Shown in pieces: positions 6,743 to 53,073 of a stretch of 53,755 nucleotides of DNA. Positions within the stretch are counted from its first letter, which is position 1; every line of letters begins with the position of its first letter. The notes beneath the pieces are model-generated. The model worked only from the letters and a program-made list of their open reading frames with translations. It had not been told where the DNA came from and did not search any database. The translations under genes and the position numbers were made by a program. The stretch is taken from contig CAZGBU010000002.1 of the NCBI GenBank assembly GCA_964523945.1, positions 1 to 53,755 of the forward strand. Reading direction: 5' to 3'. This stretch comes from an uncultured Oscillospiraceae bacterium (lineage in GTDB: Bacteria; Bacillota; Clostridia; Oscillospirales; Oscillospiraceae).

Positions 6743-6757
6743 AAAAAGACCTCCTTA

Positions 6758-6792: not shown

Positions 6793-6807
6793 CCCAAAGG
6801 AGGCTTT

Positions 6808-6912: not shown

Positions 6913-6928
6913 GTATGCGGTTGTGTTC

Positions 6929-6957
6929 AGTATAACGCCGGACGGCGCAGTGGTCAA
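6929..6957 (-). promoter_or_regulatory. sigma-A promoter of the riboswitch-thiT-thiN unit
   Basis: Minus strand TTGACC-17 nt-TATACT. The -35 overlaps the rluD stop codon. Confidence 0.6.
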
Positions 6958-7871: not shown

Positions 7872-8346
7872 CTCCGGCGCGGCGCTTTTTTTCGTCACGG
7901 CTGTAGAAAAACGCGATGTAGACGCACAACGCGATCCCGCCGCAGGTGACAAAGATGTCTGCAACGTTAAATACGGCGAAGTTCATAAACTCCACCTCGA
8001 TCATGTCGACCACATAGCCCAGACGCACGCGGTCGATCAAGTTGCCGATCGCGCCGCCCGAGACAGCGGAGAGAGCCAGCACACCGAACGGGTGCGTCAC
8101 ATACCGGCGCACGAGCGCAAACACGATCAGCGCAAGCACCACGATGGTCAGCACGATCAATGGCCAGCGCTGTCCCTGAAAGATTGAAAACGCTGCGCCG
8201 GTGTTCTGCACATACGTCAGATGCAATACACCCGGCAGCAGCGATACCTGCCCGCCAAGCGCGATGTGTGTGACGGTCAGGTATTTTGTGATCTGGTCGA
8301 GCGCAACGGCTGCGGCAGCCAGCGCGGCGGCGAACACATAGAGCAT
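7846..8346 (-). CDS. lspA: signal peptidase II (lipoprotein signal peptidase)
   Basis: 166 aa. Motifs DQITKY, YVQNTGAAFS, GGAIGNLIDR, FNVADIF. ATG 8344-8346 follows GGAGG. The longer ORF-track start (8907) was rejected. Confidence 0.9.
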   Translation of the reverse strand: MLYVFAAALAAAAVALDQITKYLTVTHIALGGQVSLLPGVLHLTYVQNTGAAFSIFQGQRWPLIVLTIVVLALIVFALVRRYVTHPFGVLALSAVSGGAIGNLIDRVRLGYVVDMIEVEFMNFAVFNVADIFVTCGGIALCVYIAFFYSRDEKKRRAGDDFHDDSV

Positions 8347-8394
8347 AGAAAAGCCTCCGGTTCCAATTCCTGCGCCAATCATAGCACACCGCGC

Positions 8395-8432
8395 GGTAAA
8401 AAGCAACGCGGCGCTTCCAGCGGAAGCGCCGC
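8395..8432 (-). terminator. intrinsic terminator after the nitroreductase gene
   Basis: gcggcgcttcc-nnn-ggaagcgccgc stem followed on the minus strand by GTTGCTTTTTACC. Confidence 0.7.
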
Positions 8433-8449
8433 GCAGGGAAGACTGGAGC

Positions 8450-8995
8450 TTACAGGTAGCTGACCGCGCCCTCTTTGCGCGGAGCGGCCTCGGGCGACTC
8501 GTCAGCGTAGCCGACGGCCAGTGCGTAATATGGCTGATAGCCCTCGGGTGCGCCGAGCCTGGCGACCAGATCCGATCGGCCGCCGTTTTCCATGCAGATT
8601 TTGAACGAGCCGAGAATGCACGAGCCAAGGCCGAGCGAATACGCGGCGACCGCCATGTTCTGCACGGCATTGGCGCAGTCGCCCATACCGGCCTCGTCGC
8701 CGGAGACGACAATCGCGACCGGCGCGCCGCGCCAGCCGTCGAAGTCCGGCGCCTGCGCCATCTCGCGCAGATGGTCGTTGCCGGACGCGAGCATGACGGC
8801 ACGGTTGGCCTCGGTGACGCTATCCATGTAGGCACGGTCGGTGACGATCGTGAAATGCCACGGCTGACGGCCCATACCGGTTGCGGCGTACTGGCCGCAC
8901 TTGACAATCAGCTCAAGGTCGTCCATCTTGACCGGCGTGTCCTTGTACTTGCGGATGCTGCGACGGCCGAGAATGCTGGAAATGGTTTCGTTCAT
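8450..8995 (-). CDS. nitroreductase-family FMN oxidoreductase
   Basis: RRSIRKYKDTPV...QPWHFTIV N-terminal signature of the nitroreductase fold. Start at ATG 8993-8995 behind AGGAGGGA. Confidence 0.8.
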   Translation of the reverse strand: MNETISSILGRRSIRKYKDTPVKMDDLELIVKCGQYAATGMGRQPWHFTIVTDRAYMDSVTEANRAVMLASGNDHLREMAQAPDFDGWRGAPVAIVVSGDEAGMGDCANAVQNMAVAAYSLGLGSCILGSFKICMENGGRSDLVARLGAPEGYQPYYALAVGYADESPEAAPRKEGAVSYL

Positions 8996-13020: not shown

Positions 13021-13125
13021 GCGGAAGCGGGATGCGGATGCTGTACGGCGAACCGGTGTTCTTCGTCCCGAGGACAACTCCCCGTCCCTCGGGCACGTGA
13101 CCCACAGCATCCTACTCTGCCTGGA
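13021..13125 (-). promoter_or_regulatory. THF (tetrahydrofolate) riboswitch
   Basis: Minus strand reads GCAGAGUAGGAUGCUGUGGGUCACGUGCCCGAGGGACGGGGAGUUGUCCUCGGGACGAAGAACACCGGUUCGCCGUACAGCAUCCGCAUCC. It carries the AGAGUAG...GGGA...ACGAAG...CGCCGUA..GCAUCCGC blocks of THF-I. A downstream CUCCUC could sequester the SD. Confidence 0.75.
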
Positions 13126-39417: not shown

Positions 39418-39540
39418 CAATTATACCGAATTTGCTGCGGAACCTGTACAACCAAAAGGTAATCTGTCCATGCAGTTTTCGCCTGGTTGCTTTTCCCGCG
39501 TGACCGGTTTAAGATAAAGCCAGAAGAATGGAGGGGTAGG

Positions 39541-40446
39541 ATGACCACGGCACAAATGCGTTACTTTCTTGTGGCGGCAGAGAATCTCAGCTTTACGCTG
39601 GCGGCCGAACAGCTCTATATCACCCAGCCGGCGCTGAGCCGGCAGATCGCGGCGATCGAGGACGAGATCGGCGTCCAGCTCTTTACGCGCGCCAACAACG
39701 CGCTCTCGCTCACCAAAGCTGGGAAAGCGCTGTACCGGCAACTGTCCAGCCTGTACAGCGATTATCAGGCGATGATGAAAAATGTGCGCGACGTGGCGGC
39801 TGGCGTTGACGGACAGATCAACATTGGCGTTCTGGAGGATCAATATATGGGAGACACGCTCTCTGCCGCCATTCGCTCACTGCTCCAGGCCAATCCCCTG
39901 TGTGAGATCAACGTCACGCGGCATGACGCTTCCACTCTGTTCGCGCGGCTGATGGAGGGGAGTGCTGATGCCGGTCTGATGCTGGTCTATGAGGAATTCG
40001 ACCAGTTCGGATTCGCTTCGCTGCCGCTTGATGTTGCGCCGGCCCGCCTGGCAATCCACCGCGGACATCCGCTGGCTGCGCGTGCGGGCGTATCATTTGA
40101 GGATCTGGAGGCGCTGCTCAGCGAGATTCCTCTGGTTATGGCGGATCTGGACCAATTCCCCGAGCCGCTGCAGATCTCCCTGCTTCGGTTCCCGCCGTTT
40201 GATGGCCTGGGGCCGAAAGCCGGCCAGCTCAAGCTGCTATCTGCGATCAGCTCGGTATCGCTGTATGTCTCGCTCGGGTTGGGCGTCACGCTGACCAACC
40301 AGAGTAATCTGCTTGCGCATGATCCCAATGTGGCGATGCTGCCGGTGCTCGGAGCGCCTGCCATCACACAGGGGCTGATCTGGCGTCGGAACTGCGCCAA
40401 TCCGCTGCTCCGGCAGCTCATAGCGCTTCTGGCGCAGCCAGACTGA
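39541..40446 (+). CDS. LysR-family transcriptional regulator
   Basis: MRYFLVAAENLSFTLAAEQLYITQPALSRQIAAIEDEIGVQLFTR HTH. Divergent from ER3. GGAGGGG SD before ATG 39541. Confidence 0.85.
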   Translation: MTTAQMRYFLVAAENLSFTLAAEQLYITQPALSRQIAAIEDEIGVQLFTRANNALSLTKAGKALYRQLSSLYSDYQAMMKNVRDVAAGVDGQINIGVLEDQYMGDTLSAAIRSLLQANPLCEINVTRHDASTLFARLMEGSADAGLMLVYEEFDQFGFASLPLDVAPARLAIHRGHPLAARAGVSFEDLEALLSEIPLVMADLDQFPEPLQISLLRFPPFDGLGPKAGQLKLLSAISSVSLYVSLGLGVTLTNQSNLLAHDPNVAMLPVLGAPAITQGLIWRRNCANPLLRQLIALLAQPD

Positions 40447-40457: not shown

Positions 40458-41627
40458 TCAGCAGAGGATCAATGTCTTAGGCGTTTGGGTCAGACATTCG
40501 GCGCCGTCTTTTGTAATCAGGAAATTATCGCAGGTGATGCCCCAGCCGTCCGCATTGGCGGCGACAGGGTGGACAGCGAAGAACATATTCTCCTCCAGCA
40601 CGAAATCCTCATCTGCTACAAGCGCAGGGCGTTCGACCATGTCCAGCCCCTGCGAGTGGGCGAACAGCCGGCCCTCCGGACCAAAGCCGTGCGCGGTGAG
40701 AAATTCGTTATTGGCCCGGAACAGCTCCGAGCAGCGGACACCAGGCTTCATCATCGAGACAACATGACGCTGGCAGGCGGCGGCGCACTCGGCAGCTTCG
40801 ATCATACCGTGGCTCGGCTCGCCGAGCGACCAGACCCGGAACAGTTCGGCGAAGTATCCTCCGGGACCGCTCAGCTCGATCAGGCACATCATGTTGTCGC
40901 CCGGCTCGACACGGCGATAGCGCTCGCACAGCTGGCTCATGCCCGGAATGCCCTGTGCGGTACCCAGGCCGACGTTCAGTCCTTCGCAGCCGAAGTCCTC
41001 GGCCAGCTTTTTCAGATCGGCGACCATCTCAAACTCGTAGCGCCCCGGCCGGAAGATGCTCGGCACTGCCGCGCCAATGCGGTCGTGGATGCGGACAATT
41101 TCGCGCAGTTTCTCGATTTCTTCCGGGCTTTTGATCGCCTTGATGCGGTCGACAAGCGTTGTGGCGTCGACCATTTCCACGTCCGGCAGATTCTCTTTCA
41201 GGTACGCGTACAGCGAAGCGGGGATCTGTGCCATGGCGACAAAGCCGATCCGCTTGTAGCCGCGCGCACGGATCTGCTCAGCTACAAGGCGTGGCATATA
41301 GGGGTCAGTATAACACAGTGTGGGCATCAGCGGCGTAGCCAACGCCTGACCGATGCCGCGCTGCAAGCCGGGCGGGATGCTCTGCGTGCCGACGGCGCCG
41401 TGTGCGATCAGCGTCGTCTCGTCGTCGCGGTGGAACAGAATCGTCGTGGGATAGTTGCCGATCGGAAGATCGGTGAAATAGCGCGTATAGCCGCCGAGCA
41501 GGTTGTCATAGTTGTGCACGACAAGACAGTCGAGCGCCTCGCGCGCCATTGCTTGACGGACAAGCGTCCAGCGGCGCTGCATCTCGCCCTCGCTCATTGC
41601 GTGACGGAAGCGTTCAGACAGGGGCAT
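40458..41627 (-). CDS. M24-fold protein (creatinase/prolidase-like, Xaa-Pro peptidase family) with substituted metal-ligand positions
   Basis: Creatinase_N-like N-domain plus pita-bread C-domain (GPGGYFAELFRVW, AHSQGLDMVERP). By-eye alignment puts Glu/Glu/His/Glu/Asp where M24B has Asp/Asp/His/Glu/Glu. Confidence 0.65.
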   Translation of the reverse strand: MPLSERFRHAMSEGEMQRRWTLVRQAMAREALDCLVVHNYDNLLGGYTRYFTDLPIGNYPTTILFHRDDETTLIAHGAVGTQSIPPGLQRGIGQALATPLMPTLCYTDPYMPRLVAEQIRARGYKRIGFVAMAQIPASLYAYLKENLPDVEMVDATTLVDRIKAIKSPEEIEKLREIVRIHDRIGAAVPSIFRPGRYEFEMVADLKKLAEDFGCEGLNVGLGTAQGIPGMSQLCERYRRVEPGDNMMCLIELSGPGGYFAELFRVWSLGEPSHGMIEAAECAAACQRHVVSMMKPGVRCSELFRANNEFLTAHGFGPEGRLFAHSQGLDMVERPALVADEDFVLEENMFFAVHPVAANADGWGITCDNFLITKDGAECLTQTPKTLILC

Positions 41628-41877: not shown

Positions 41878-43428
41878 ATGGAACTGATCCGCAATGCGCT
41901 CGGCCGGGAGATTCCCGATTTTGTAGAGACCTACGGCGAAGTCCGCCCGTACCGGGGCGCGTTTGCCTCGCTTGGCGAGCATGAAACAGTCCCGGCGCGC
42001 CGTCGCGCCGCTGTGCCGGGGGAGAACAAGGTGCTTTCGTCTCTGGCAGAGGCAATTCAGAAGAGCGGCCTGAAAGACGGCATGACCGTCTCGTTCCACC
42101 ACCATCTGCGCAATGGCGACAAGGTGGTCAATCAGGTGATGCAGGCGATCGCCGAGGCCGGGCTGAAAGACATTCATCTCGCGGCGACGGGCCTGTTCAA
42201 GTGCCACGAGCCGCTGGTGGAGCTGATGGAGCGCGGCGTTGTGACCAAGATCACGACCAGCACGTTCAATCCCGGACCGGTGCCAAAGGCGGTAACGGCC
42301 GGCAAGCTGCGCAAGCCCGCGGTCCTGATGACGCACGGCGGCCGCCCGCGCGCGGTGGCGGAGGGCGAGCTGCACATTGACGTGGCGTTTATTGCAGCGC
42401 CGAGCTGCGACTGCATGGGCAACCTCAACGGCACGACTGGGCCGTCGGCCTGCGGCTTCCTGTCGTATGCATACGCTGACGCGCAGTATGCCGACTGTGT
42501 CGTCGCCGTAACGGATCATCTGGTCGACTATCCCTGCATGCCGATTGAGATCAGCCAGGAGCAGGTCGATTATGTGGTGCCCGTCGAGTCCATCGGCGAC
42601 CCGTCCGGCATTGTCTCCGGCACAACGGAGATTACAAAAGACCCGGTGCGGCTGGGCATCGCGGCGGACACGGCGAAGCTGATCGATGCGGCTGGCTATC
42701 TCAAGCCCGGCATGTCGTTCCAGACCGGCGCGGGTACGACCTCGCTCGCAGTGGCGGCCGAGGTTGGCCGGATGATGCACGAGCGCAATATCGTCGGCTC
42801 GTTTGCAAGCGGCGGCATTCATGCTTATCTCGTACAGATGCTCGAAGAGGGGATGTTTCGCGCGCTGGTCGACGTGCAGTGCTTCGACCTCGAGGCGGTG
42901 CGCTCCGCACGCGACGACAGCCGCCACCTCGGCATGAGCGCCGCAATGTATGGCGATATGCACAGCCGCGGCTGCCTGGTGAATAACTTGGATGTGGTCA
43001 TCCTCGGCGCAACGGAGATCGACGTTGACTTTAATGTCAATGTTGTCACTGGCTCCGACGGGACGATTATGGGCGCCTCGGGCGGCCACAGCGACACGGC
43101 GGCCGGCGCTAAGCTGACGATTGTCGTGTCGAATCTGATGAAAAAGGCGCGCTGCCTGGTCAAAAAGGCGGTGACGACCGTCACCACGCCGGGCGAAACC
43201 ATCGACGCGCTGGTGACCGAATATGGCATCGCGATCAACCCGCGCAGAACCGATCTGCTCGAGCGGCTTGCCGGCTCCGGCCTGCCGCTTGTCACAATGG
43301 AGGAGCTCCTGCAGAAGGGCTATGAGCTTGGCGCGCAGGAGGATCACCCGAACCTGACCGGCCGCATTGTCGCGCTGGTCGAATACCGCGACGGCACCAT
43401 CATCGACGTGGTGCGTCAGCCTGTCTGA
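41878..43428 (+). CDS. citF: citrate lyase alpha subunit homolog (citrate CoA-transferase family)
   Basis: Collinear with remembered E. coli CitF: GMTVSFHHHLRNGD, HIDVAFIAAPSCD, MSFQTGAGTTSLAV, NVNVVTGSDGTIMGASGGHSDTA, VEYRDGTIIDVV. Confidence 0.85.
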   Translation: MELIRNALGREIPDFVETYGEVRPYRGAFASLGEHETVPARRRAAVPGENKVLSSLAEAIQKSGLKDGMTVSFHHHLRNGDKVVNQVMQAIAEAGLKDIHLAATGLFKCHEPLVELMERGVVTKITTSTFNPGPVPKAVTAGKLRKPAVLMTHGGRPRAVAEGELHIDVAFIAAPSCDCMGNLNGTTGPSACGFLSYAYADAQYADCVVAVTDHLVDYPCMPIEISQEQVDYVVPVESIGDPSGIVSGTTEITKDPVRLGIAADTAKLIDAAGYLKPGMSFQTGAGTTSLAVAAEVGRMMHERNIVGSFASGGIHAYLVQMLEEGMFRALVDVQCFDLEAVRSARDDSRHLGMSAAMYGDMHSRGCLVNNLDVVILGATEIDVDFNVNVVTGSDGTIMGASGGHSDTAAGAKLTIVVSNLMKKARCLVKKAVTTVTTPGETIDALVTEYGIAINPRRTDLLERLAGSGLPLVTMEELLQKGYELGAQEDHPNLTGRIVALVEYRDGTIIDVVRQPV

Positions 43429-43468
43429 GCGTTTCCCAAATCTTTTACATATCAGGAGGAACACAAAA

Positions 43469-44362
43469 ATGGAAGTCATGAGAACCAGTCTGTACATCCC
43501 TGCAAACAATCCGGTGTTTGTCGGCAAGTGCTCGAAGTATCCCGCAGACATCATCACCTTTGACATTGAGGACGCCGTCCCGCCGCAGGAGAAGGCCAAC
43601 GCCCGCAAAATGGCGGCCGACAACCTGATCAAGGCAGGCGAAAACGGCGCGGAGGTCTATGTCCGCGTCAATGGCTGGCACACCGAGTACACCAACGACG
43701 ACCTTGAGGCCGTTGTCCAGCCGGGGCTGAATGGCATCACCCTGCCGAAAACCCGCAACGCCGACGATGTCAAACGCCTCGACTGGAAGATCTCCGAGCT
43801 CGAAGAGCGCCGCGGCATCCCGGCCGGCACCGTCAAGATTTCCGTCCTGCTCGAGACTGCTGAGGGCATCATGAACGCCTATCAGATCTGCACGGCCAGC
43901 CCGCGCATCGTCTCCGCGTTCTTCGGCGCCGTCGACTACTGCGCCGACCTGCGTATCACCCGCACAAATCTTGCCGAGGAGCAGAAAGTCGCCCGCACAA
44001 TCGTCGCCATCGCTGCGCGCGCTGCCGGCATCGTCGCGCTCGACGCGCCGTTCGCCGACTACTCCAACATGGACGACTTCCGCCAGAACACGCTTGACGG
44101 CCGCCAGATGGGCTACGAGGGCCGCATGATTATCCATCCGAGCCAGATTGCCGTTGCGCACGAGCTCTATTCCCCGACGGCTGAGGAAGTTGAGCATGCC
44201 GCCAAGGTCAAGAAATTCTTCGAGGAAGAGGGCCTGGCCAAGGGCCTTGCCTCCGTCTCGATGGATGGCGCGATGGTCGATACGCCGGTCTATGTCAGCG
44301 CCTGCCAGGTGCTTGAGCGCTATGAAGCGATTCAGGCCAAGGAGGCCGCCGGCAAGAAATAA
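43469..44362 (+). CDS. citE: citrate lyase beta subunit / citryl(malyl/citramalyl)-CoA lyase family (HpcH/HpaI aldolase fold)
   Basis: SLYIPANNP...FDIEDAV...VRVNG...LPKT...LLETAEG...FGAVDY...IHPSQI motifs of CitE. AGGAGGA SD. Confidence 0.8.
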   Translation: MEVMRTSLYIPANNPVFVGKCSKYPADIITFDIEDAVPPQEKANARKMAADNLIKAGENGAEVYVRVNGWHTEYTNDDLEAVVQPGLNGITLPKTRNADDVKRLDWKISELEERRGIPAGTVKISVLLETAEGIMNAYQICTASPRIVSAFFGAVDYCADLRITRTNLAEEQKVARTIVAIAARAAGIVALDAPFADYSNMDDFRQNTLDGRQMGYEGRMIIHPSQIAVAHELYSPTAEEVEHAAKVKKFFEEEGLAKGLASVSMDGAMVDTPVYVSACQVLERYEAIQAKEAAGKK

Positions 44363-44377
44363 GGGAGGGACTTCTCT

Positions 44378-45331
44378 GTGAAAATCGTTCTTCTCGAACC
44401 GCTGGGCATCTCTGCCCAGCGGCTCGAAGCGCTCTCTGCCGGCCTGATCCGGCAGGGGAATGAATTTGTCGCCTATGACACGGTCGAGACCGATGTCGAG
44501 GCGCTTAAAAAACGTGCGGCGGGTGCCGACATTCTGATGATCGCGAACCATGCCCTGCCGGGCGAGGTGATCGAGAGCGTCGACAATCTCCAGTATATCT
44601 CAGTGGCGTTCGTCGGCATCGACCACATCGGCAAGGATGCCTGCGTGAAGAAGGGAATTCGCGTTTCCAATGCAGCGGGCTATTGCCGGGACGCGGTGGC
44701 GGAGCTGGCGCTTGGTCTGGCGCTCGATTGCCTGCGCAACATTTCTGCATGCAACGACGTCGTCCGCCATGGCGGCACAAAGGACGGCCTGATTGGGCAC
44801 GAGCTGCATGGCCGCACGGTCGGCATCATCGGCACCGGCGACACCGGCATCCGCACCGCGGAGCTCTACCGCGCATTTGGCTGCCGCGTCCTCGGCTATA
44901 GCCGCACCGAGCGCGAAGCGGCCAAGCAGGCGGGCATTGTGTATGTCCCGCTTGACGAGCTGCTTGCGCAGAGCGATATTGTCTCGGTCCACACGCCGCT
45001 GACCGATCAGACACGCGGCCTGATCGGTGCAGACGCGGTCGCGAAGATGAAGCCGGGTGCGATCCTGATCAACACCTCGCGCGGCCCCGTGGTCGATTCA
45101 CAGGCGGTTGCGGACGCGCTCCGCAGCGGCCGGCTTGGCGCGATGGGTACGGACGTGTTTGAGGATGAGCCGCCGGTTGCGGCAGATCATCCGCTGCTGA
45201 CGGCGCCGCACGTCGTCGCGACGCCGCATGTGGCGTTTGCTACGCTGGAATCCATCGACCGCCGGGCACAGATCACGTTTGACAACGTGGAAAAATGGCT
45301 GCAGGGCACGCTGCAGAATCCAATGCTGTAA
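44378..45331 (+). CDS. D-isomer-specific 2-hydroxyacid dehydrogenase (PGDH/GhrB-like)
   Basis: GRTVGIIGTGDTGIRTA NAD fold, INTSRGPVVD, TDVFEDEP, ATPHVAF (Arg-Glu-His triad context). GTG start behind AGGGAGGGA. Confidence 0.8.
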   Translation: MKIVLLEPLGISAQRLEALSAGLIRQGNEFVAYDTVETDVEALKKRAAGADILMIANHALPGEVIESVDNLQYISVAFVGIDHIGKDACVKKGIRVSNAAGYCRDAVAELALGLALDCLRNISACNDVVRHGGTKDGLIGHELHGRTVGIIGTGDTGIRTAELYRAFGCRVLGYSRTEREAAKQAGIVYVPLDELLAQSDIVSVHTPLTDQTRGLIGADAVAKMKPGAILINTSRGPVVDSQAVADALRSGRLGAMGTDVFEDEPPVAADHPLLTAPHVVATPHVAFATLESIDRRAQITFDNVEKWLQGTLQNPML

Positions 45332-45346
45332 ACGGCAGGTGGCGAT

Positions 45347-46126
45347 ATGGAAGAAAAACTCTCCAAGCTGAATCAGTCGGTGGAAAAGACCATGCGGCTG
45401 GTGGAGATCATGGCGCGCTCCGGCGCACCACGCAAACTCCAGAGCATCGCGCAGGAGGCGCAGATGCCGGCCAGTACGGCGCTGCGGATGCTCAACACCA
45501 TGCTGACGCTTGGTTATGTCAACCAAGATCCGGAGACGTTGAAGTATTCTCTGTCGCTGAAGTTTACCCATCTGGGAGAACAGGCTGCGGCGCAGGTCAG
45601 TCCGACGTCGCTGGCGCACCCACTGCTGGCTGCGCTGAGCCGTAAGACAGGCGAGTGCACCTGCTTCGCGGAGGAACAGGATGATCAGGCGGTCTATCTC
45701 GACGTGGTTTCTGACAGCGCCGACAATATCCTGACCATTACACGCCGGATCGGCAAGCGCGCCCCGCTGTACTGCACAGGTGTCGGAAAGCTGTTTCTGC
45801 TCAACGACACGCACGAGGAGTTGGAGCAATATTTCCAGCGGACGCCGATTGTCCGCTACACGGATCACACCATCACGACGCTCGCGGAGCTTGAGACGGA
45901 GCTTCAGACGATCCGCGCCAACGGCTTCGCCTACGACAATGAAGAGTGCGACCGCGGTGCGCGCTGCATCGCCGCGCCGGTGCGCAACTATACCGGGCGC
46001 GTTGTTGCGGCCATCAGCGTGACGGCACCGTCGCAGCGCATGACGGCTGAACGGATGGAGGGCCTGATTCCATTGGTGCAGGAAACCGCGGTGCAGATCT
46101 CCCGCAAACTGGCCTATGGCGGCTGA
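45347..46126 (+). CDS. IclR-family transcriptional regulator
   Basis: N-terminal wHTH (KTMRLVEIMARSGAPRKLQSIAQEAQMPASTALRMLNTM) and a C-terminal IclR effector domain (GFAYDNEECDRGARCIAAPV). Confidence 0.85.
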   Translation: MEEKLSKLNQSVEKTMRLVEIMARSGAPRKLQSIAQEAQMPASTALRMLNTMLTLGYVNQDPETLKYSLSLKFTHLGEQAAAQVSPTSLAHPLLAALSRKTGECTCFAEEQDDQAVYLDVVSDSADNILTITRRIGKRAPLYCTGVGKLFLLNDTHEELEQYFQRTPIVRYTDHTITTLAELETELQTIRANGFAYDNEECDRGARCIAAPVRNYTGRVVAAISVTAPSQRMTAERMEGLIPLVQETAVQISRKLAYGG

Positions 46127-46138
46127 ACGGAGGATTGT

Positions 46139-47137
46139 ATGAAGTTATCGAAAATTGCTGTATTTGCCGACGCCCCGATGCACCATGTGACGCAGGAGGA
46201 TCTCACAACCCTGCGCGCTGCGGCACCCGACGTGGCAATCTACCTGGTAGACACGCCGCAGGAGCTCGCGCAGCTTGCACCGGATGTGGATGCCATCTTT
46301 ACCATGCCGGTGCGCGACTTTACGCCGCTGATCGAATACTGCGCCGGCGACCCGAATCTCAAATGGCTCCAGCTGATGACGGCAGGGTTTGATTTCCTGT
46401 TCGGCACACCGTTTGAGCGGCAGCCGGGCCTGACGGTCACCTCGACGATCGGCATTCATGGCGAGCCGATTTCCGACCATGCGCTGGCGATGATGTTCGG
46501 CCATGTGCGACTGATGGCGGAGGCGTACCGGCTGCAGAGCCGGCATGAGTGGATGGGTGAAGTCACCCCCGGCTTTGATGAGATTGGCCGTAAGACCGTC
46601 GGTATCATCGGCCCCGGCGCGATCGGCATGTGCCTGGCGCGCAAGTGCAAGGCGCTCGGCATGACCGTCTATGGCGCAAAGCGCACGCCTGTGCAGAGCG
46701 AATATCTTGATCACTGCTGGCCGATTGCCGAACTCGACAAGATGCTGGCTGTGTCGGATTTTGTCGTTGTCACCTCGCCGCTGACCGAGCAGACACGCGG
46801 TATGCTGAACGCAGAGCGGTTCGCCGCAATGAAGCCGGGCGCGTATGTCATCAACCTTGCGCGCGGCCCGATCATTGTGAACGAGGCGCTGATCGACGCG
46901 CTGCGCTCGGGCCATATCTCTGGCGCCGGACTGGATGTGACGGACCCGGAGCCGCTGCCGGCAGACAGCCCGCTCTGGGATCTGCCCGGCGTGACGATTA
47001 CGAGTCATGTCTCGGCACAGTCGCCGTATTATTTCGAGCGCGCGCTGGAGAACTACTGCGAAAATGTGCGTCGTTTTCTTGCGGACGAGCCGCTGCGCAA
47101 CGTCTGCAAACAGCCGGACGGCGTGCTGACAAAGTGA
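46139..47137 (+). CDS. D-isomer-specific 2-hydroxyacid dehydrogenase, second paralog
   Basis: KTVGIIGPGAIGMCLA, INLARGPIIV, LDVTDPEP, TSHVSA. Confidence 0.8.
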   Translation: MKLSKIAVFADAPMHHVTQEDLTTLRAAAPDVAIYLVDTPQELAQLAPDVDAIFTMPVRDFTPLIEYCAGDPNLKWLQLMTAGFDFLFGTPFERQPGLTVTSTIGIHGEPISDHALAMMFGHVRLMAEAYRLQSRHEWMGEVTPGFDEIGRKTVGIIGPGAIGMCLARKCKALGMTVYGAKRTPVQSEYLDHCWPIAELDKMLAVSDFVVVTSPLTEQTRGMLNAERFAAMKPGAYVINLARGPIIVNEALIDALRSGHISGAGLDVTDPEPLPADSPLWDLPGVTITSHVSAQSPYYFERALENYCENVRRFLADEPLRNVCKQPDGVLTK

Positions 47138-47147
47138 GGGACAAGGC

Positions 47148-48056
47148 ATGAAAGCATTTATTATCGGCAGCGGAACGCTTGGATCGACAACGGCGTTCCT
47201 GCTGGCGGAGCACGGATTGTATGACGAGATCGTCCTGTTTGATACCTATGAGCCGCTGGCGCTCAACCATTCGATGGATCTTTTGCAGTCGGTCTGCCTG
47301 ACGACGAATGTCTCGGTTCGCCAGGGCGGGCTCGATCAGATGGAGGGCAGCGACCTGGTGGTGATGTCAGCTGGCCTGCGCTCGAAATCCAGCTCGCCGG
47401 ACTTTGTCGGGACAGCGGTGGAAATGGCCCCGTTGCTGACACAGATTGCCGACGCGCTGCGCACTGCGCCGAACGCCATTGTCATCACGATGACAAATCC
47501 GGTGGATGCACTCTCATATCTGCTCTGCCGGCTGTCCGGCCTGCCGGAGAAACAGTTCCTTGGTTTTACCTGGAACGATTCCTTGCGCTTTCGCTGGTCG
47601 ATTGCGCGTGGCCTCGGTGTCACGCCGGCGCAGGTCGACGCGTATATGGTCGGCGAGCATGGTATGTCCAAGGTGGCTGTCTGGTCGGATGTTCGTGTCG
47701 ATGGCGTGCCGCGTGTATTTACAGCGGACGAGCGCGCGCAGATTGGTGCGGCGCAGGACGCATTCTGGTCGGAATTTATGAAAGTCGGCAGCCTGCGCAC
47801 CGCCGGCTGGACGACGGCCTATGGCGCGCTGCAGCAGATCCACTATGTGCTCGGCGAGCTGGAAGGCTGGTGCCCGTGCTCGGCGATCACCGGCGATTAC
47901 AGTTCCGGCCGTCCGGCAAGACTGAGCCGCGAGGGCCTGGTGGAGCTCCGCCCGCTGCATCTGGCGGACGATGAGCAGGCGCTCTACGACCAGTCGATTG
48001 CCAGGATCCGCGGGATGATCCACGACATCGCACAGCAGGCTGGCTGGAAAATCTGA
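47148..48056 (+). CDS. L-lactate/malate dehydrogenase-family enzyme with atypical substrate loop
   Basis: IIGSGTLGSTTAF...LFD Rossmann, TNPVD, NDSLRFR, GEHG (catalytic His). The loop reads SAGLRSKSSSPDFVG instead of AG.(R/Q)K.G..R.DL. Confidence 0.7.
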   Translation: MKAFIIGSGTLGSTTAFLLAEHGLYDEIVLFDTYEPLALNHSMDLLQSVCLTTNVSVRQGGLDQMEGSDLVVMSAGLRSKSSSPDFVGTAVEMAPLLTQIADALRTAPNAIVITMTNPVDALSYLLCRLSGLPEKQFLGFTWNDSLRFRWSIARGLGVTPAQVDAYMVGEHGMSKVAVWSDVRVDGVPRVFTADERAQIGAAQDAFWSEFMKVGSLRTAGWTTAYGALQQIHYVLGELEGWCPCSAITGDYSSGRPARLSREGLVELRPLHLADDEQALYDQSIARIRGMIHDIAQQAGWKI

Positions 48057-48151
48057 TTTAAAACGGGAGAACGGCCCCTGCGGCGCAACGGCTGCAGGGG
48101 CTGTCTGCATTCCAGCCCGGCAAGGAGGCGTTTTCTCTGAACCAGTCAACG

Positions 48152-49498
48152 ATGATCCGGGATCTGACAACCGGCAATGTATTTCGCCAGCTTGTACGTT
48201 TTGCGATCCCGTTTGTGATCTCCAACACACTGCAGACGCTTTATAACATCGTCGACATGATCGTCATCGGCCATTTTGTTGGGGCGGTTGGGCTGTCAGC
48301 CGTTTCGACGAGCGCAGAGCTGATGACGCTTGGCACGATGATTGGCATCGGTTTTGCCACTGCCGGCCAGACGATGATCGCACAGTATGTTGGCCGCAAA
48401 GATGAGGCGGCCATCCAACGCACGGTGGGCAACCTGTTCACACTGATGCTGATTCTGGGCGTGTCGGTGATGCTGATTGGCTGCGCGTTTACCGGGCCGC
48501 TGCTCACTTGGATGAACACGCCCGCGGAGGCGCTCAGCCAGGCACGCGCATACGCGCTGATCTGCTTCCTCGGTATGGTGTTTATCTTTGGATACAACAC
48601 CGTCAGTGCAGTGCTGCGCGGCATGGGAGACAGTGTCCGCCCGTGCATCTTCATCGCGGTTGCCGCGGTGACAAATCTGGTGCTTGATCTTGTGTTTGTC
48701 GCCGGACTGCATATGGATGCGGCCGGCGCGGCGTTGGCGACGGTGATTGGGCAGGCTGTCTCGTTCATCGGCTCCATGATCTACCTGTACCGGCGGCGGG
48801 CGGCATTCTGCTTTGACTTTCGGCTGAGAAGCTTTGCGCTCGACAGCAAAACTGCGCGGATGATGTGCCGGCTTGGCCTGCCGATGATCGTTCAGTCGGC
48901 GGCGCTGAATCTCTCGCAGATGGTTGTCACGTCGATGGTCAATACGTTTGGCATTGTTGCCTCGACCGTCACCGGCGTCGGCAGCAAGATCTGTTCGGTG
49001 ATGAATATCTGTTCGCAGTCGCTCGGTGCGGGCGGCGCGTCGATGGTGGGGCAGAACCTCGGTGCGGGCAAACATGACAGGGTTGTCCGCATCTACTGGG
49101 AGACATTCGGAATTACGGCGGCCGCAGCTGTGATGTCTGTGATTATGCTTGTATGGCCTGAGCAGGTGTTCCGGCTGTTCAACACCGATCCGGAGGTCCT
49201 GGCCATGGCGCGGTCGTATTCAATTATCGCGGTCATCAACTTCTTCGGCTTTGCGCTGCGCACACCGGCACAGGCGCTCATCAGCGGACTCGGCTTCGCG
49301 TCGTACTGCCTGGCGATGGGGATTATGGACGGCGTTGTCGCGCGCATCGGGCTGTCGGCGCTGCTGTGCTATGGGCTGGACATGGGGATTTTTGGCCTCT
49401 GGCTCGGCGGCACGCTTGCGGGCTATGTGACCGGCGTGATGGGACATATCTATTACATGACTGGCCGCTGGCGCACCCGCCGCCTGGCCATCGAATAA
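48152..49498 (+). CDS. MATE family efflux transporter
   Basis: RDLTTGNVFRQLVRFAIPFVISNTLQTLYNIVDMIVIGHFVG N-terminus and 12 hydrophobic segments. No well-spaced SD for ATG 48152. Confidence 0.8.
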   Translation: MIRDLTTGNVFRQLVRFAIPFVISNTLQTLYNIVDMIVIGHFVGAVGLSAVSTSAELMTLGTMIGIGFATAGQTMIAQYVGRKDEAAIQRTVGNLFTLMLILGVSVMLIGCAFTGPLLTWMNTPAEALSQARAYALICFLGMVFIFGYNTVSAVLRGMGDSVRPCIFIAVAAVTNLVLDLVFVAGLHMDAAGAALATVIGQAVSFIGSMIYLYRRRAAFCFDFRLRSFALDSKTARMMCRLGLPMIVQSAALNLSQMVVTSMVNTFGIVASTVTGVGSKICSVMNICSQSLGAGGASMVGQNLGAGKHDRVVRIYWETFGITAAAAVMSVIMLVWPEQVFRLFNTDPEVLAMARSYSIIAVINFFGFALRTPAQALISGLGFASYCLAMGIMDGVVARIGLSALLCYGLDMGIFGLWLGGTLAGYVTGVMGHIYYMTGRWRTRRLAIE

Positions 49499-49500
49499 GT

Positions 49501-49541
49501 ACAAGCCCGGCATGGCCATGCGGCCATGCCGGGCTTGTTTG
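49501..49541. terminator. bidirectional terminator between the MATE and opine-dehydrogenase genes
   Basis: acaagcccggcatggcc-atgc-ggccatgccgggcttgt, a 17-bp stem followed by ttgt. Confidence 0.8.
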
Positions 49542-49551
49542 TATTGTGCGA

Positions 49552-50601
49552 TTATGAGATCATGCTGAGCATGCGCTCAAAATCGATGGCGTCCTCATTG
49601 CGGCCGGTACGGTAGAAGTCGCGGCGGTAGACAACATTGGCCCAGTGGATTGCAGCATCGATCACGTCCGTCCGAACGCCCAGCCTCCAGCCCAGCGAGC
49701 TGACCGGGACGCAGCCGGTCTGGATGTCCTCGAAGATATAGCGGGTGTCAATGTCGGTCGGTGCGAGCACGTCCTGATATGCGTGTGTGTTCTGGATGCG
49801 CTCATAGAGCGTGTCGCCCTGGGAACCATAGCGGTCCGCGAGCCACTCAGCGGCGGTCGGCACCGCCACACCGGCGGCTTTTGCCACGGCGACGCGCTCC
49901 GCATCGATCTGCTCGAGCACGCTGGCGACGAGCGGGGAAATGCCATCGATATAATAGCGGAAGTCCTCCTTGGCCTCGATGCGGGTGATGTTCATCAGGA
50001 TCGGCAGGGGATGGAATACCATGCCGATGTTGGACAACCCTGTTTCAAGCACACTGGCGGCCGGCTCCACGCTCGGAAACAGTTCCCGGAGCAGCGCTGT
50101 GAGGCGCGGTGTGTCGGCGTTATCGTGTCCGGCAACGCGCAGGCCGTGTTTGATTTCATAGATCACGGGATGACCGACCGCCTTGCAGCGGCAGGTGAAG
50201 ACGAACGTGTCCGTTTCGCCCAGGATGACGTTGGCAGTGCAGCCGCAGTCAGCGAGCGCTTTGGCAACAGTAAATGTGCCGAACGTGCGGCCGGGATTGA
50301 GTATGACAACCTGCCCGTCTGTGAGATACGGGGCCATCTCACGGGCGATGACGCCATGGTACTGCGCCGGTGTGGTGACCATGATCAGCTCTGCGCCTGA
50401 GATCACCTCGTCCATATGGCAGCTGATCAGGTCAACGTCTGTCTCACAGACAACCTGCCCGCTCAGCGAAAAGTGGCGCTCGGGAAACATATCCACGCGT
50501 GCCTGTTCGCGCGCGTAGAGCGTGACGCTGTGCCCCTGATTAGCCAGGTATGCGGCCAGTGACTGACCGCCGTTGCCCGAACTGATGACTGCAATCCGCA
50601 T
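49552..50601 (-). CDS. NAD(P)-dependent opine (octopine/nopaline) dehydrogenase-family oxidoreductase
   Basis: MRIAVISSGNGGQSLAAYLA Rossmann N-terminus. The C-half LSNIGMVFHPLPILMN...YIDGISP...DTRYIFEDIQTGCVP matches the Octopine_DH domain pattern. GGGAGGAAAG SD. Confidence 0.75.
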   Translation of the reverse strand: MRIAVISSGNGGQSLAAYLANQGHSVTLYAREQARVDMFPERHFSLSGQVVCETDVDLISCHMDEVISGAELIMVTTPAQYHGVIAREMAPYLTDGQVVILNPGRTFGTFTVAKALADCGCTANVILGETDTFVFTCRCKAVGHPVIYEIKHGLRVAGHDNADTPRLTALLRELFPSVEPAASVLETGLSNIGMVFHPLPILMNITRIEAKEDFRYYIDGISPLVASVLEQIDAERVAVAKAAGVAVPTAAEWLADRYGSQGDTLYERIQNTHAYQDVLAPTDIDTRYIFEDIQTGCVPVSSLGWRLGVRTDVIDAAIHWANVVYRRDFYRTGRNEDAIDFERMLSMIS

Positions 50602-52249
50602 CGTTGCTTTCCTCCCTTCCCAGAATCAGATCCAGCCGCTCATGCTCGGTCAGGAAGCGCTGCGTACCGGCGTCATATGCCAGGCATTTCCCATCGCGCA
50701 TGCGGGTGCTGAGTGAGCCGCGTGTACCGTCCGGCCGGACAATGTGCGGCGCGTCGAGAATGCCGCGGCGGATACAGTCGGACAGCACGGCGGCGTCTGA
50801 AAACGGGTCGGGGCTCTCCGGGTACTGTGTCTGAATGAACGAGAGCAGAACGCCCGCCTCGCGCAGCAGCTCTGCCTGCCGCTCCTGGACGCGCGGGTCA
50901 GCTGTCGCATCGGCGTTGCCCTGGAGGGTGGAGCGGACAACACCGCGGACGATCTTGCAGCTTTCGATGACAACCTCGGGCGTCGCGGCGTGCTCGGCCT
51001 CGCTGTAGCCTACGACATGGATGATGTCAGGGTGAACATTCATCGCCAGCGCAGTCGAGGCGGCAAGCTGTCCCTTGGCCACATCCATATCTGCGCTCAG
51101 GAATGGCAGCCCCGCGCGCACTTCACGATAGATGCGGAAATCAGGCCCTGCCAGCGACTGCACCAGCTCGTCCTGTGCGAGCACCTTAGCCAGATCCATC
51201 GAGAAGCTCATTGAATTGGGAATATTGAACATGTACTGGGAAACATAGTCGTGCGCGCCGTACGCTCTGGCGTTATAGGCGCTCAGATAGCTCATAACGA
51301 CGGAGATCACGTCGTGTGCGTCGCGCAGGCCCCAGTGGTGCGGTTCGTTGACTTCTACCGGAATGCCGCGCTCGCCGTGCCATGCGATCAGCGCTTGCGC
51401 TTCGCGCATGGACTGCTCCAAAGAACGGGTGCCGCGTCCGTCAAGCTCGTTGTACCAGCTCAGGGGGACGGCGCACCAGGCGTTGTCGATTGTCCGGTGC
51501 AGCACGTCTGCCAGGCGGAGCACATCTGCTGTGCCGCTGTAGCAGCGCATCAGCGGATAGTTGCCGCACTGGGAGGCCTGCTTCAGGCGCCGGAATTCCT
51601 CTTCGCTTCGGACGGGGACACCGCCTGCGCCGTCGGCGCGTGGATCGCGCTGATCCGGCCGGAAGAAAAACTGCTGCGTATTCTGGTCGATGCCGAGCGA
51701 GATCACATCAAGCACACGCGAGCGTGCAATCTGCTCCACACCCGCAATGGTCTGCTCCAGCGACGGCAGCCCAAAATGGTGCCGCAATAGCGGGTAGGGC
51801 CGCTTCTGTGCGCGGCGGCCGGGCAGGTCGGCGGCAAACGCCTCAGCCTGCTCGCTGCCGGCACGCACACCGGTGCGCAGGAACGTGATGCAGTCGTCCC
51901 AGTCCTCGGTCCCGTCAAAGATCACGTCGAAGAACCCGAGCTTTTCCACTTCGCGGGCGACCGGGTATGTACCGCCGAAGATCCAGACCGGCCGACGCGG
52001 AAGCGCGCAGCTTTTTTCCTTCAGCTCCTCCACAAGGGGAATGACGTTCGCCGGCGTCAGACGATAGCCCAGATCCACATAGTCGGGATCATACTCCAAA
52101 ACCGCTTCCATTACCCGGTCGACGCTGTTGGCCGGACCGAGAAAAATCGTTTCATAGCCTTCGTCTTCCGCCATGGCGAGAAAATGAACGACGCCGGCAA
52201 CATGGACGCAGCTGCCAATAGAGCCGCCGATCATTCGGCCTTTTTCCAT
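50540..52249 (-). CDS. single-chain fusion of a B12-binding-like Rossmann domain (GlmS/MutS-like) and a glutamate mutase E-subunit-like TIM barrel (uncharacterised mutase-like protein)
   Basis: N-terminus MIGGSIGSCVHVAGV...IFGG aligns to GlmS VIGSDCHAVGN...YVGG. The remainder is collinear by eye with GlmE (MRCYSGT / ARHGT, GIPVEVNEPHHWGL / GVHINREPFGPL, GILDAPH / GVMDIPF, MRDGKCLAYDAG / VRDNLGCVRYLEFG). AAGGAG SD before ATG 52249. Confidence 0.6.
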   Translation of the reverse strand: MEKGRMIGGSIGSCVHVAGVVHFLAMAEDEGYETIFLGPANSVDRVMEAVLEYDPDYVDLGYRLTPANVIPLVEELKEKSCALPRRPVWIFGGTYPVAREVEKLGFFDVIFDGTEDWDDCITFLRTGVRAGSEQAEAFAADLPGRRAQKRPYPLLRHHFGLPSLEQTIAGVEQIARSRVLDVISLGIDQNTQQFFFRPDQRDPRADGAGGVPVRSEEEFRRLKQASQCGNYPLMRCYSGTADVLRLADVLHRTIDNAWCAVPLSWYNELDGRGTRSLEQSMREAQALIAWHGERGIPVEVNEPHHWGLRDAHDVISVVMSYLSAYNARAYGAHDYVSQYMFNIPNSMSFSMDLAKVLAQDELVQSLAGPDFRIYREVRAGLPFLSADMDVAKGQLAASTALAMNVHPDIIHVVGYSEAEHAATPEVVIESCKIVRGVVRSTLQGNADATADPRVQERQAELLREAGVLLSFIQTQYPESPDPFSDAAVLSDCIRRGILDAPHIVRPDGTRGSLSTRMRDGKCLAYDAGTQRFLTEHERLDLILGREESNDADCSHQFGQRRSVTGRIPG

Positions 52250-52300
52250 CGCAATTCTCCTTTCTGGGCCAGGGCCCATGGTATGTGTTGGGGTACCCGG

Positions 52301-52930
52301 TCAGCCGTGCTGATTGACAAACTTTGAGACGGCGCCGACCGCTTCCGGCGCACAGACAAAAATGATCGTGTCGCCATCGTACAGTTCAGCCGTCGGCCCG
52401 GGCGAGAGAATGGTGTTCTGCCGCCGCCGGATTGCGACGATGGTTGCACCGGTCGCCTGCCAGAACTGCAGCGAGCTGAGGCTCCTGCCGATCAGTGGAG
52501 AGTCGGCCCTTACGCGCACCTCGTAATTCGGCAGCCCATGGTCCGATGGCAGCGGCAGCTCCTGTGCGCGGATGATCTCGTGGTACACGTCAAGCATTTG
52601 CCGGCTGATCTCGATGTGCTGTGCGAACAGTCCTTTCAGGCGGGAGCGAAGCTCCTGTGTCTGGTCACGTTCCTGACGGCTGGCCAGATAGCGGTGGGCA
52701 TTGTCAGCGGAGAGCACATAGACGCCTCTGCGGGGTTTGACCTCGACTACTTTCATGTCTGCAAGCAGACGTAGCGCGCGCCGGATGGTCTCGGGTGAGA
52801 CGCTGTATTCTGAGGCCAGCAGCGACCGGCCGGACATGCGCTCACCCTCAGCGATTTCCTTTTGAGCAATGCGCGATGCCAGATCCAGTGCGATCCGCTC
52901 GTACTGGGCGATGGAATCCGCTTCGTGCAT
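52301..52930 (-). CDS. GntR-family wHTH regulator fused to a TrkA-C (RCK_C) ligand-binding domain
   Basis: RMSGRSLLASEYSVSPETIRRALRLLADMKVVEVKPRRGVYV (GntR HTH), a coiled linker, then ADSPLIGRSLSSLQFWQATGATIVAIRR...GDTIIFV (TrkA-C). Confidence 0.75.
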   Translation of the reverse strand: MHEADSIAQYERIALDLASRIAQKEIAEGERMSGRSLLASEYSVSPETIRRALRLLADMKVVEVKPRRGVYVLSADNAHRYLASRQERDQTQELRSRLKGLFAQHIEISRQMLDVYHEIIRAQELPLPSDHGLPNYEVRVRADSPLIGRSLSSLQFWQATGATIVAIRRRQNTILSPGPTAELYDGDTIIFVCAPEAVGAVSKFVNQHG

Positions 52931-52980
52931 ATGACGCCGCCTCCTTTGTTATGCGATACGCCCCGGCTTCCTTCATGGAT

Positions 52981-53009
52981 ATTATAAACTAACAACTTTA
53001 AAAAATCAA
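52981..53009 (-). promoter_or_regulatory. sigma-A promoter of the gntR-mutase-like-opine DH operon
   Basis: Minus strand TTGATT-17 nt-TATAAT. Confidence 0.6.
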
Positions 53010-53073
53010 GAGTGTGTCAGAAGAAGGCGAAAAACAATGTCCGGCCGCATAGATCGGAGCAGCAGATAATAGA

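Follow-up and report, generated by a model that had tools for sequence, protein, structure and literature searches.

Opine dehydrogenases catalyze the reductive condensation of an amino acid with a 2-oxo acid. To our knowledge, few reaction types are known for the adenosylcobalamin-dependent isomerases, and most of these were discovered decades ago. The present work deals with a minus-strand operon that encodes a B12-binding protein and an enzyme of the opine dehydrogenase family, in a 53,755-nucleotide (nt) stretch of DNA from an uncultured Oscillospiraceae bacterium (assembly GCA_964523945.1, contig CAZGBU010000002.1). The whole of this stretch is referred to as the window. The closest described counterpart is a B12 family that Zhang, Rodionov, Gelfand and Gladyshev predicted from genomes (2009, BMC Genomics 10:78, PMC2667541) and that was reported to be “always adjacent to octopine/nopaline dehydrogenase.” That family comprised 11 sequences from Clostridia, Lactobacillales, Chloroflexi and Thermotogae, with a distant B12-binding domain at the N-terminus and a TIM-barrel-like prediction for the remainder (PMC2667541). 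No function was given, a D-Ala:D-Ala ligase and an asparagine synthase were noted nearby in some genomes, and experiments were called for (PMC2667541).

The genes of the operon in the window are as follows.

52930..52301, minus strand: GntR-family regulator with a C-terminal TrkA_C (RCK_C) domain; open reading frame (ORF) of 209 residues, winged helix-turn-helix at about 52715..52906, TrkA_C at about 52319..52525
52249..50540, minus strand: single-chain B12 protein; ORF of 569 residues, B12-binding Rossmann domain at about 51911..52237, GlmE-fold TIM barrel at about 50654..51814
50601..49552, minus strand: enzyme of the opine dehydrogenase family; ORF of 349 residues

An earlier note on this DNA, made from the letters alone, had described three tightly packed minus-strand ORFs behind a TTGATT-17-TATAAT promoter, and all three were confirmed at the coordinates it gave. 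Pfam also upheld its assignments of GntR, TrkA_C, B12-binding and Octopine_DH domains. The same note saw no obvious described counterpart; this holds for biochemistry, as no later biochemical characterization of the mutase-opine dehydrogenase pair was found in open-access papers and bioRxiv, but the pair itself had been described bioinformatically by Zhang et al. The family of the B12 protein is almost certainly that of Zhang et al., matched by description: shared are the N-terminal B12 domain, the adjoining pfam02317 gene (in 74 of 80 loci here) and a neighbor resembling D-Ala-D-Ala ligase (Ddl-like; in four loci here).

The balance of the evidence given below favors an autonomous operon in which a radical isomerase of the adenosylcobalamin type and an opine-type dehydrogenase turn common metabolites into an unusual branched amino or imino acid, or the reverse.

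A conserved gene pair and its fusions

A scan of 185,579 species, each with one genome, turned up relatives in 333, nearly all of them Clostridia and allies, and an exhaustive search of 1.84 billion representatives gave 556 clusters at 50% identity with E <= 1e-10. Neighborhoods were counted in 80 loci fetched for the purpose. The dehydrogenase gene adjoins the gene of the B12 protein (the mutase gene) in 74 of them, in either order and mostly with an overlap of a few bases, and several of the exceptions are truncated contigs. Where the dehydrogenase comes first, this overlap is always 1 or 4 nt (16 of 16 loci). The GntR/TrkA_C regulator, on the other hand, is present in only 11 of the 80 loci, which are the closest ones. 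In addition, the divergence of the mutase from its window copy is correlated with that of the dehydrogenase (Pearson r = 0.91, n = 71). The functional unit is the mutase-dehydrogenase pair, not three genes; the three-gene operon of the earlier note stands as a description of the window, whereas the conserved unit has two genes. The functional coupling that it proposed for the B12 enzyme and the opine dehydrogenase, and for which it suggested a survey of gene neighborhoods, is now much better supported, by the adjacency found in such a survey, by the co-divergence and by the fusions described below.

The operon also behaves as a unit in its placement. A single blastn match of 92.6% identity relates 53034..49537 of the window to 5216..8713 of locus L001, from another Oscillospiraceae genome. 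The shared block begins 25 nt ahead of the -35 box and ends 15 nt beyond the stop codon of the dehydrogenase gene, and the flanks have nothing in common: L001 has genes for a class II aminoacyl-tRNA synthetase, PPDK, Rex and OGG, and the window has a MATE transporter gene and an unannotated ORF. Because so similar a block has unrelated flanks in L001, the operon behaves as a relocatable 3.5-kb cassette, a discrete unit found in different places.

Several relatives are fused to further domains.

P0249, 863 residues: mutase and a glutathione-synthetase/RimK-type ATP-grasp domain; Met_asp_mut_E matched with 27.5 bits, above the cutoff of 26.6
P0267 and P0269, 1,266 and 1,226 residues: B12 domain, barrel and MutL (PF13941)
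P0275, 826 residues: barrel and MutL; no B12-binding match at E <= 0.01
P0392, 1,657 residues: Octopine_DH, B12 domain, barrel and MutL, from precomputed Pfam annotation and a mid-region alignment
P0259, 528 residues: C-terminus of the dehydrogenase and mutase

PF13941 is the family to which MutL, the reactivase of glutamate mutase, belongs. P0267, P0269 and P0275 are members of a sister subfamily, whose proteins have about 1,216 residues and come from Bacillota, Caldatribacteriota, Anaerolineae and others. Among the members of this subfamily that were examined, the dehydrogenase gene lies immediately upstream of three unfused ones and is fused in the fourth. P0392 is encoded in loci L085-L087 (gene 4337..9310 in L085), with an Opp-type ABC importer upstream and Peptidase_C26 and a class-IV aminotransferase downstream. 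The MutL and dehydrogenase fusions are the strongest argument that radical adenosylcobalamin chemistry is carried out by the superfamily and that the dehydrogenase takes part in the same process. A further relative, P0254, has a weak C-terminal match to Peptidase_M15 (D-Ala-D-Ala carboxypeptidase-like).

Fold, cofactor motif and likely chemistry

In Pfam, the B12-binding domain (PF02310) was found in the B12 protein with 38.3 bits against a cutoff of 32.1, at residues 15-123 of the longer, 579-residue ORF. The glutamate mutase E family (Met_asp_mut_E, PF06368) gave a sub-threshold match (E 0.066, 12.1 bits against a cutoff of 26.6), which is collinear between residues 156-542 and profile positions 13-397 of 441. 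The B12-binding_2 cap (PF02607) was not found by Pfam, and the Rossmann domain starts at residue ~5, as expected of mutases and not of methyl-transfer corrinoid proteins. NCBIfam has no specific or equivalog model for the B12 protein or for the dehydrogenase, and gives the former a weak MtgC match. The public names of the homologues are merely “cobalamin B12-binding domain-containing protein” and similar, and the assembly index has no entry for the exact window protein. Searches of PDB sequences with phmmer and with a family profile matched the B12 domain only and not the barrel, and hhalign of the family profiles against a verified GlmE sequence or a GlmE alignment gave a probability below 1%, which is not significant.

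By fold, the barrel does resemble GlmE. When the AlphaFold2 model of the B12 protein (predicted local distance difference test score 79.7, predicted template-modeling score 0.79) was compared with the PDB in Foldseek, E chains of glutamate mutase came out first (6h9e_B, E 6e-16; 1cb7_B, E 1e-15; target TM 0.67; sequence identity 14%). For 6h9e_B the E value was 6.2e-16 and the probability 1.0, with TM scores of 0.57 (query) and 0.67 (target) over 467 aligned columns. The top 30 matches are adenosylcobalamin isomerases throughout; GlmE is followed by ornithine 4,5- and lysine 5,6-aminomutases (E ~1e-11 to ~5e-10) and then by acyl-CoA mutases. Motif correspondences along the barrel were also seen in the hhalign alignment, where PLMRCYSGTAD stands opposite PLQARHGTPD, NEPHHWG opposite NREPFG, YSEAEHA opposite TPHEAIG and GILDAPH opposite GVMDIPF. 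The conserved residues R156, H158, R235, R272, R309, R378, D188, D270 and D313 lie at the barrel strands of the model or directly behind them, and so do the residues that are at least 93% identical in both subfamilies; in GlmES this is the B12-docking face. Thus the collinearity with GlmE that the earlier note had seen by eye survives at the level of fold and motifs, where structure search matched the large domain to GlmE chains, and does not reach significance by sequence in Pfam or hhalign. A BLASTP comparison of the N-terminal domain with GlmS (24% identity over 58 residues, E 5e-4) was not relied on, as the GlmS sequence was unverified.

In the hhalign alignment, which is of low confidence, R100 of GlmE stands opposite Phe195, R66 opposite His158, R149 opposite Tyr237 (or the nearby Arg235) and E171 opposite Glu268. 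R66, R100 and R149 are the substrate-binding arginines of GlmES. From this alignment, the glutamate-binding arginines appear not to be kept, R100 at least. With a similarity to GlmE that is not significant by sequence and with the Cys motif described next, the B12 protein should not be classed as a glutamate mutase.

The cobalt-ligand motif of the B12 protein is C14-V-H16-V-A-G19, that is C-x-H-x-x-G and not the canonical D-x-H-x-x-G of His-on proteins (His16 codon at 52202..52204). In a profile alignment to corrinoid proteins, the Cys stands opposite their Asp. This Cys is invariant in 27 diverse members, and the same motif is found in the deeply diverged sister subfamily. His16, Gly19 and Gly93 (of an FGG stretch) are invariant in the 27 members as well and at least 93% kept in 42 sequences of both subfamilies. 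Their conservation in both subfamilies argues for a bound cobamide, which the B12 protein would then presumably carry.

The dehydrogenase matches Octopine_DH (PF02317; E 8e-47, 159.4 bits against a cutoff of 30) and NAD_Gly3P_dh_N in Pfam, and is homologous over its full length to N-(1-D-carboxyethyl)-L-norvaline dehydrogenase (CENDH) of Arthrobacter (1bg6; E 2e-67, residues 3-339, ~36% identity in the multiple alignment). H197, R287 and D292 correspond to the catalytic residues H202, R292 and D297 of CENDH; in an alignment of 61 sequences (the window enzyme, CENDH and 59 partner dehydrogenases), at least 95% keep them. Arg31 is uniform in the partner dehydrogenases where CENDH has Ile35, and at the end of Rossmann strand beta-2 the window enzyme has Ala30 in place of CENDH Asp34; this combination would be the classical signature of a preference for NADPH over NADH. 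Arg105 is also conserved in the partner dehydrogenases, where CENDH has Ala111. Judged from its sequence, the dehydrogenase of the window is a CENDH-like, opine-type enzyme with a predicted condensation activity.

These observations can be joined into a mechanism. The operon would probably be autonomous and self-repressed by the GntR/TrkA_C regulator, which would sense a substrate or product as ligand. The B12 enzyme, a GlmS-like B12 domain with a putative Cys-x-His-x-x-Gly lower-ligand motif fused to a barrel of predicted GlmE fold, is probably an adenosylcobalamin-dependent isomerase of a new subclass; most likely it would proceed by Co-C homolysis, hydrogen abstraction and a 1,2-shift, and its substrate is likely to be an amino- or imino-(poly)carboxylic acid and not plain glutamate. 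The CENDH-like dehydrogenase, probably NADPH-preferring, would make or break a secondary-amine C-N bond (amino acid + 2-oxo acid <-> N-carboxyalkyl amino acid), either in the step that leads up to the rearrangement or in the one that follows it. In other lineages the product would apparently be passed to an ATP-grasp ligase and attached to surface glycans, and the MutL-fused sister form would act in peptide-import/hydrolase operons. We infer both the radical isomerase chemistry and the repressor role. A more specific version is offered tentatively, and we think it rather more apt to fail than to hold: the family would be a new class of adenosylcobalamin mutase, defined by Cys-x-His-x-x-Gly, that rearranges an opine-type imino acid or an amino-acid precursor with an obligatory opine dehydrogenase, giving an undescribed branched amino or imino acid that is ligated to surface glycans in some anaerobes and broken down after import in others.

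Several points weigh against a radical isomerase in this operon. The B12 protein has Cys where the Asp of the Asp-His pair would stand, and we know of no characterized mutase with this replacement. By sequence, the B12 domain is closest to methyl-transfer corrinoid proteins (4jgi, MttC) and to MetH. The homology of the barrel to GlmE is not significant by sequence, so that the mechanism depends on a fold predicted with moderate confidence. Glu268, the equivalent of GlmE Glu171, varies in the sister subfamily. No MutL homologue was found in the window, as the earlier note had claimed, or within 6-8 kb in 84 loci of the unfused subfamily, and no cobalamin riboswitch was found anywhere in the window. 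Lastly, the neighboring genes are too variable across loci to derive a substrate.

Four other readings were weighed against these data. As GlmE is the best structural match, with motif correspondences along the barrel and MutL fusions in the sister subfamily, the B12 protein could be a true single-chain glutamate mutase (glutamate <-> 3-methylaspartate), with the dehydrogenase replacing methylaspartase and converting 3-methylaspartate to, for example, 3-methyloxaloacetate and 2-oxobutyrate, or to N-carboxyethyl-methylaspartate. Such a route would fit the neighboring genes in the window, which include those of a CitF/CitE-like lyase and of three dehydrogenases of the 2-hydroxyacid/lactate-malate kind. 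However, the Pfam score for GlmE is far below its cutoff and the hhalign result is not significant, Arg100 and Arg66 stand opposite Phe and His (in the low-confidence alignment), and E268 is not conserved in the sister subfamily. The cassette lies among housekeeping genes in its 93%-identical relative, so the CitEF neighborhood is probably coincidental. The absence of methylaspartase claimed by the earlier note holds in so far as none was seen among the genes annotated from ~31.5 kb to the window end, with no search aimed at methylaspartase. We regard a glutamate mutase as unlikely. An aminomutase dependent on pyridoxal phosphate (PLP) and adenosylcobalamin (class III), followed by an amine dehydrogenase, is unlikely to a similar degree. 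In its favor, ornithine 4,5- and lysine 5,6-aminomutase are the next-best structural matches (E 1e-11 to 5e-10), many of the host organisms ferment amino acids, the order of aminomutase and then dehydrogenase is established in clostridia, and K392 is invariant. In both known aminomutases, however, the PLP-lysine is located in the Rossmann domain, and no invariant Lys was found there in this family (residues 1-125, 27 sequences). GlmE is also about five orders of magnitude better in the structure search, and the partner is a true dehydrogenase of the opine type, whereas other dehydrogenase families serve those fermentations.

The two remaining readings dispense with radical chemistry. The TIM barrels of methyltransferases also dock corrinoid domains, and a methylcobalamin/corrinoid methyltransferase-type protein, in which a corrinoid domain serves a substrate-activating TIM barrel as in MtaBC, would account for the best sequence matches of the B12 domain (4jgi, MttC and MetH), the weak MtgC match and an S-adenosylmethionine-methyltransferase gene upstream in one relative. 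This is very unlikely in view of the missing B12-binding_2 cap, the lack of any methyltransferase barrel in the top 50 structural matches, the MutL reactivase fusions and a constant opine dehydrogenase that would have no role in methyl transfer. Least probable of all is a degenerate B12-like domain that binds no cobamide, attached to a TIM-barrel enzyme that depends on a metal or on no cofactor and is paired with the dehydrogenase as in ordinary two-step metabolism. Without the cofactor it would be difficult to see why two subfamilies that diverged so deeply both keep His16, Gly19 and Gly93, and both the MutL fusions and the fold match, specifically to mutase barrels, speak against degeneration; on its side are the loss of the canonical Asp, an SxL motif that reads G-Y-R-L, a Pfam score just 6 bits over the cutoff with several relatives below it, and the invariant H158, H304 and H411, which could bind a metal.

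An adenosylcobalamin-type isomerase working with an opine-type dehydrogenase thus remains the favored reading. If it is true, the isomerases would gain a further subclass, which has a cofactor motif and reactivase fusions of its own and a dehydrogenase as fixed partner; this would mean a new B12 reaction, and probably a new metabolite for anaerobes of the gut, rumen, termite gut and sediments. The window operon is an ordinary member of a widespread family, and the interest lies in the family and not in the locus. The gene pair has been known since 2009. The 2009 paper (PMC2667541) does not speak of a fold like that of GlmE, of fusions to MutL or to a ligase, of the CxHxxG motif or of glycan clusters as a context. 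The family is a prediction that has stood since then, and the fold, the reactivase and ligase fusions and the glycan clusters make it directly testable.

Operon control and genomic contexts

The control elements and limits of the operon are as follows.

53009..52981, minus strand: promoter-like site of sigma-70 type, TTGATT (53009..53004), 17 nt, TATAAT (52986..52981); 10 of 12 consensus positions
52989..53020, minus strand: candidate operator, inverted repeat CTGACA (53020..53015) / TGTTAG (52994..52989), bracketing the -35 box
49501..49538: G+C-rich hairpin with a 17-bp stem, probable terminator, between the converging dehydrogenase and MATE genes
49537..53034, minus strand: 3.5-kb block common to L001 (92.6% identity, blastn)

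The regulator gene has the ribosome-binding site AAAGGAGG. The start of the B12 protein at 52249 follows an AAAGGAG ribosome-binding site and agrees with the N-termini of homologues; the longer ORF of 579 residues begins at 52279. The dehydrogenase gene has its ribosome-binding site, AGGGAGGA, and its start codon inside the 3' end of the mutase gene, the overlap being 62 nt. The regulator has a GntR domain (Pfam E 4.6e-13, 49.1 bits against a cutoff of 27, residues 9-72) and TrkA_C as effector domain (Pfam E 1.6e-18, 66.8 bits, residues 136-204); this is none of the classical GntR effector domains (FadR/FCD, HutC/UTRA, MocR, YtrA), and FCD, UTRA and aminotransferase domains were not found by the Pfam scan.

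TTGATT-17-TATAAT is the top-scoring site of the scanned stretch, in which two such sites were seen and 1.5 are expected by chance. The -35 and -10 hexamer regions are kept in an alignment of six related loci whose regulators are only ~60% identical. The conserved blocks CTAACATACT and AAGTTGTTAG surround the promoter in the alignment of regulator-containing loci, and the blocks CTAACATACT ... AAGTTGTTAGT flank both hexamers in seven loci with regulators ~60% identical to one another. The inverted repeat is CTAACA ... TGTTAG in the relatives, where the window has CTGACA, and may be bound by the GntR protein. The conservation of promoter and inverted repeat among the regulator-containing loci suggests autoregulation of the operon. 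The repeat is also a candidate operator for a little-studied type of regulator, the GntR/TrkA_C type.

The hairpin lies 13 nt beyond the dehydrogenase stop codon and outside the block common to L001. It had been called a bidirectional terminator in the earlier note; the hairpin is present and its T-run is good on the plus strand, where it serves the converging MATE gene, but the minus-strand tail, ACTTATTCG, is not convincing, so that the name has partial support. Two riboswitches were seen elsewhere in the window, one for tetrahydrofolate (13023..13121, minus strand, 88 bits) and one for thiamine pyrophosphate (6799..6909, minus strand, 63 bits).

Across the loci, the pair was found in several settings. 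In the window-type context, the regulator-mutase-dehydrogenase operon stands alone. A triad of ATP-grasp, mutase and dehydrogenase genes is present in seven loci, and the four annotated ones are all in surface-polysaccharide clusters, which carry glycosyltransferases, a Wzx flippase, a DesI-like 4-aminotransferase, RmlA, RmlB, Glf, a pyruvyl transferase, a FemAB-like protein and a UDP-sugar dehydrogenase. The position of the triads in glycan clusters points to a biosynthetic role in these lineages, in which the product would be ligated to an amino sugar or amino acid. These clusters are built around dTDP-4-amino-4,6-dideoxyhexose genes, which indicates where the product could be found chemically. 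A cultured organism with a cluster of ATP-grasp, mutase, dehydrogenase, DesI and RmlAB genes is Clostridium sp. FAM 1755 (locus L046); Bittarella massiliensis, Anaerofilum hominis and Sedimentibacter acidaminivorans are cultured carriers too. The dehydrogenase comes first in ~16 loci, with a Ddl-like gene upstream in four; several of these loci have a convergent set of M20 peptidase, amidohydrolase, YfcC transporter and IclR genes downstream. The ATP-grasp domain of P0249, the Peptidase_M15 match of P0254 and the Ddl-like neighbors are hints of D-amino-acid or cell-wall peptide chemistry. Sister-subfamily genes have as neighbors Opp/Dpp-type ABC importers, Peptidase_C26, class-IV aminotransferase or C45 hydrolases, and GntR-UTRA, RpiR or AraC regulators, a setting that looks catabolic. 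The choice that the earlier note left between a catabolic and a biosynthetic route is thus narrowed a little, with relatives beside ATP-grasp ligases in glycan-biosynthesis clusters and the sister subfamily in importer/hydrolase operons. Its statement that the substrate cannot be deduced from sequence is shared here, as none was derived; N-carboxyalkyl-glutamate, 3-methylaspartate and D-amino-acid derivatives were considered as substrate chemistry and are guesses only, none of them derivable.

Genes at lower window coordinates than the operon are given below.

37378..39381, minus strand: Oxidored_FMN + Pyr_redox_2 flavoenzyme of 2,4-dienoyl-CoA-reductase-like architecture, upstream of the CitF-like gene
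39487..40446, plus strand: LysR regulator, upstream of the CitF-like gene
40458..41627, minus strand: M24 creatinase/prolidase-like peptidase, upstream of the CitF-like gene
41878..43428, plus strand: CitF-like citrate-lyase alpha/CoA-transferase
43367..44362, plus strand: HpcH/CitE-like lyase
44378..45331, plus strand: D-2-hydroxyacid dehydrogenase
45347..46126, plus strand: IclR regulator
46139..47137, plus strand: second D-2-hydroxyacid dehydrogenase
47148..48056, plus strand: LDH/MDH-like protein
48152..49498, plus strand: MATE exporter

The plus-strand run 41878..49498, which converges on the operon, looks like a pathway for an acid of the (methyl)malate/citramalate type. Its CitF/CitE, 2-hydroxyacid dehydrogenase, IclR and MATE genes were set aside as pathway partners, since the cassette stands among housekeeping genes in L001. 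In one complete genome of Clostridia type (L081, 10723..17674), the pair lies tail-to-tail with an aminoadipate-pathway-like LysW-type cluster of M20 (LysK-like), Aminotran_3, AA_kinase, semialdehyde dehydrogenase, LysX-like ATP-grasp, isopropylmalate/homoisocitrate dehydrogenase and aconitase subunit genes. This LysW-type aminoadipate/arginine cluster was likewise set aside as a partner, having been seen once and being convergent.

Comparison with known systems

Glutamate mutase (GlmES/MutSE of C. cochlearium and C. tetanomorphum; 1cb7, 1ccw, 6h9e) is the best structural match of the B12 protein and shares with it a B12 Rossmann domain and a TIM barrel, collinear strand-end motifs, the retained H-x-x-G and G-G and, through the sister subfamily, a link to a MutL-type reactivase. 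The window protein is a single chain with the B12 domain at its N-terminus, whereas GlmES has two subunits, and identity is ~14%, not significant by sequence. The window protein also has Cys for the Asp of DxHxxG, has apparently not retained the substrate arginines, and has a constant opine dehydrogenase partner. Unlike in glutamate mutase operons, there is no GlmL in the window, and no methylaspartase was seen among the annotated neighbors, where it was not searched for directly.

CENDH of Arthrobacter sp. 1C shares the His/Arg/Asp triad and the HPLP and RYxFED motifs with the window dehydrogenase, which differs in having Arg31 for Ile35, Ala30 for Asp34 and Arg105 for Ala111. We know of no report of CENDH working with a B12 enzyme.

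Ornithine 4,5- and lysine 5,6-aminomutase (3kow, 1xrs) also consist of a B12 Rossmann domain and a TIM barrel. In clostridial fermentation of ornithine and lysine, a B12 aminomutase is followed by an NAD(P)-dependent deaminating dehydrogenase. Compared with these enzymes, the window family is without the conserved PLP-lysine of the Rossmann domain, matches them less well in structure than it does GlmE, and has a dehydrogenase of another family.

PylB, PylC and PylD are comparable by analogy only, as a carbon-skeleton mutase, an ATP-grasp ligase and a dehydrogenase that together build an unusual amino acid. The ATP-grasp ligase of the glycan-cluster triads weakly matches PylC-like_N and TIGR03909. 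PylB is a radical-SAM enzyme, in contrast to the B12 protein, and PylD is unrelated to opine dehydrogenases, so that homology with the pyrrolysine set is confined to the class of the ligase.

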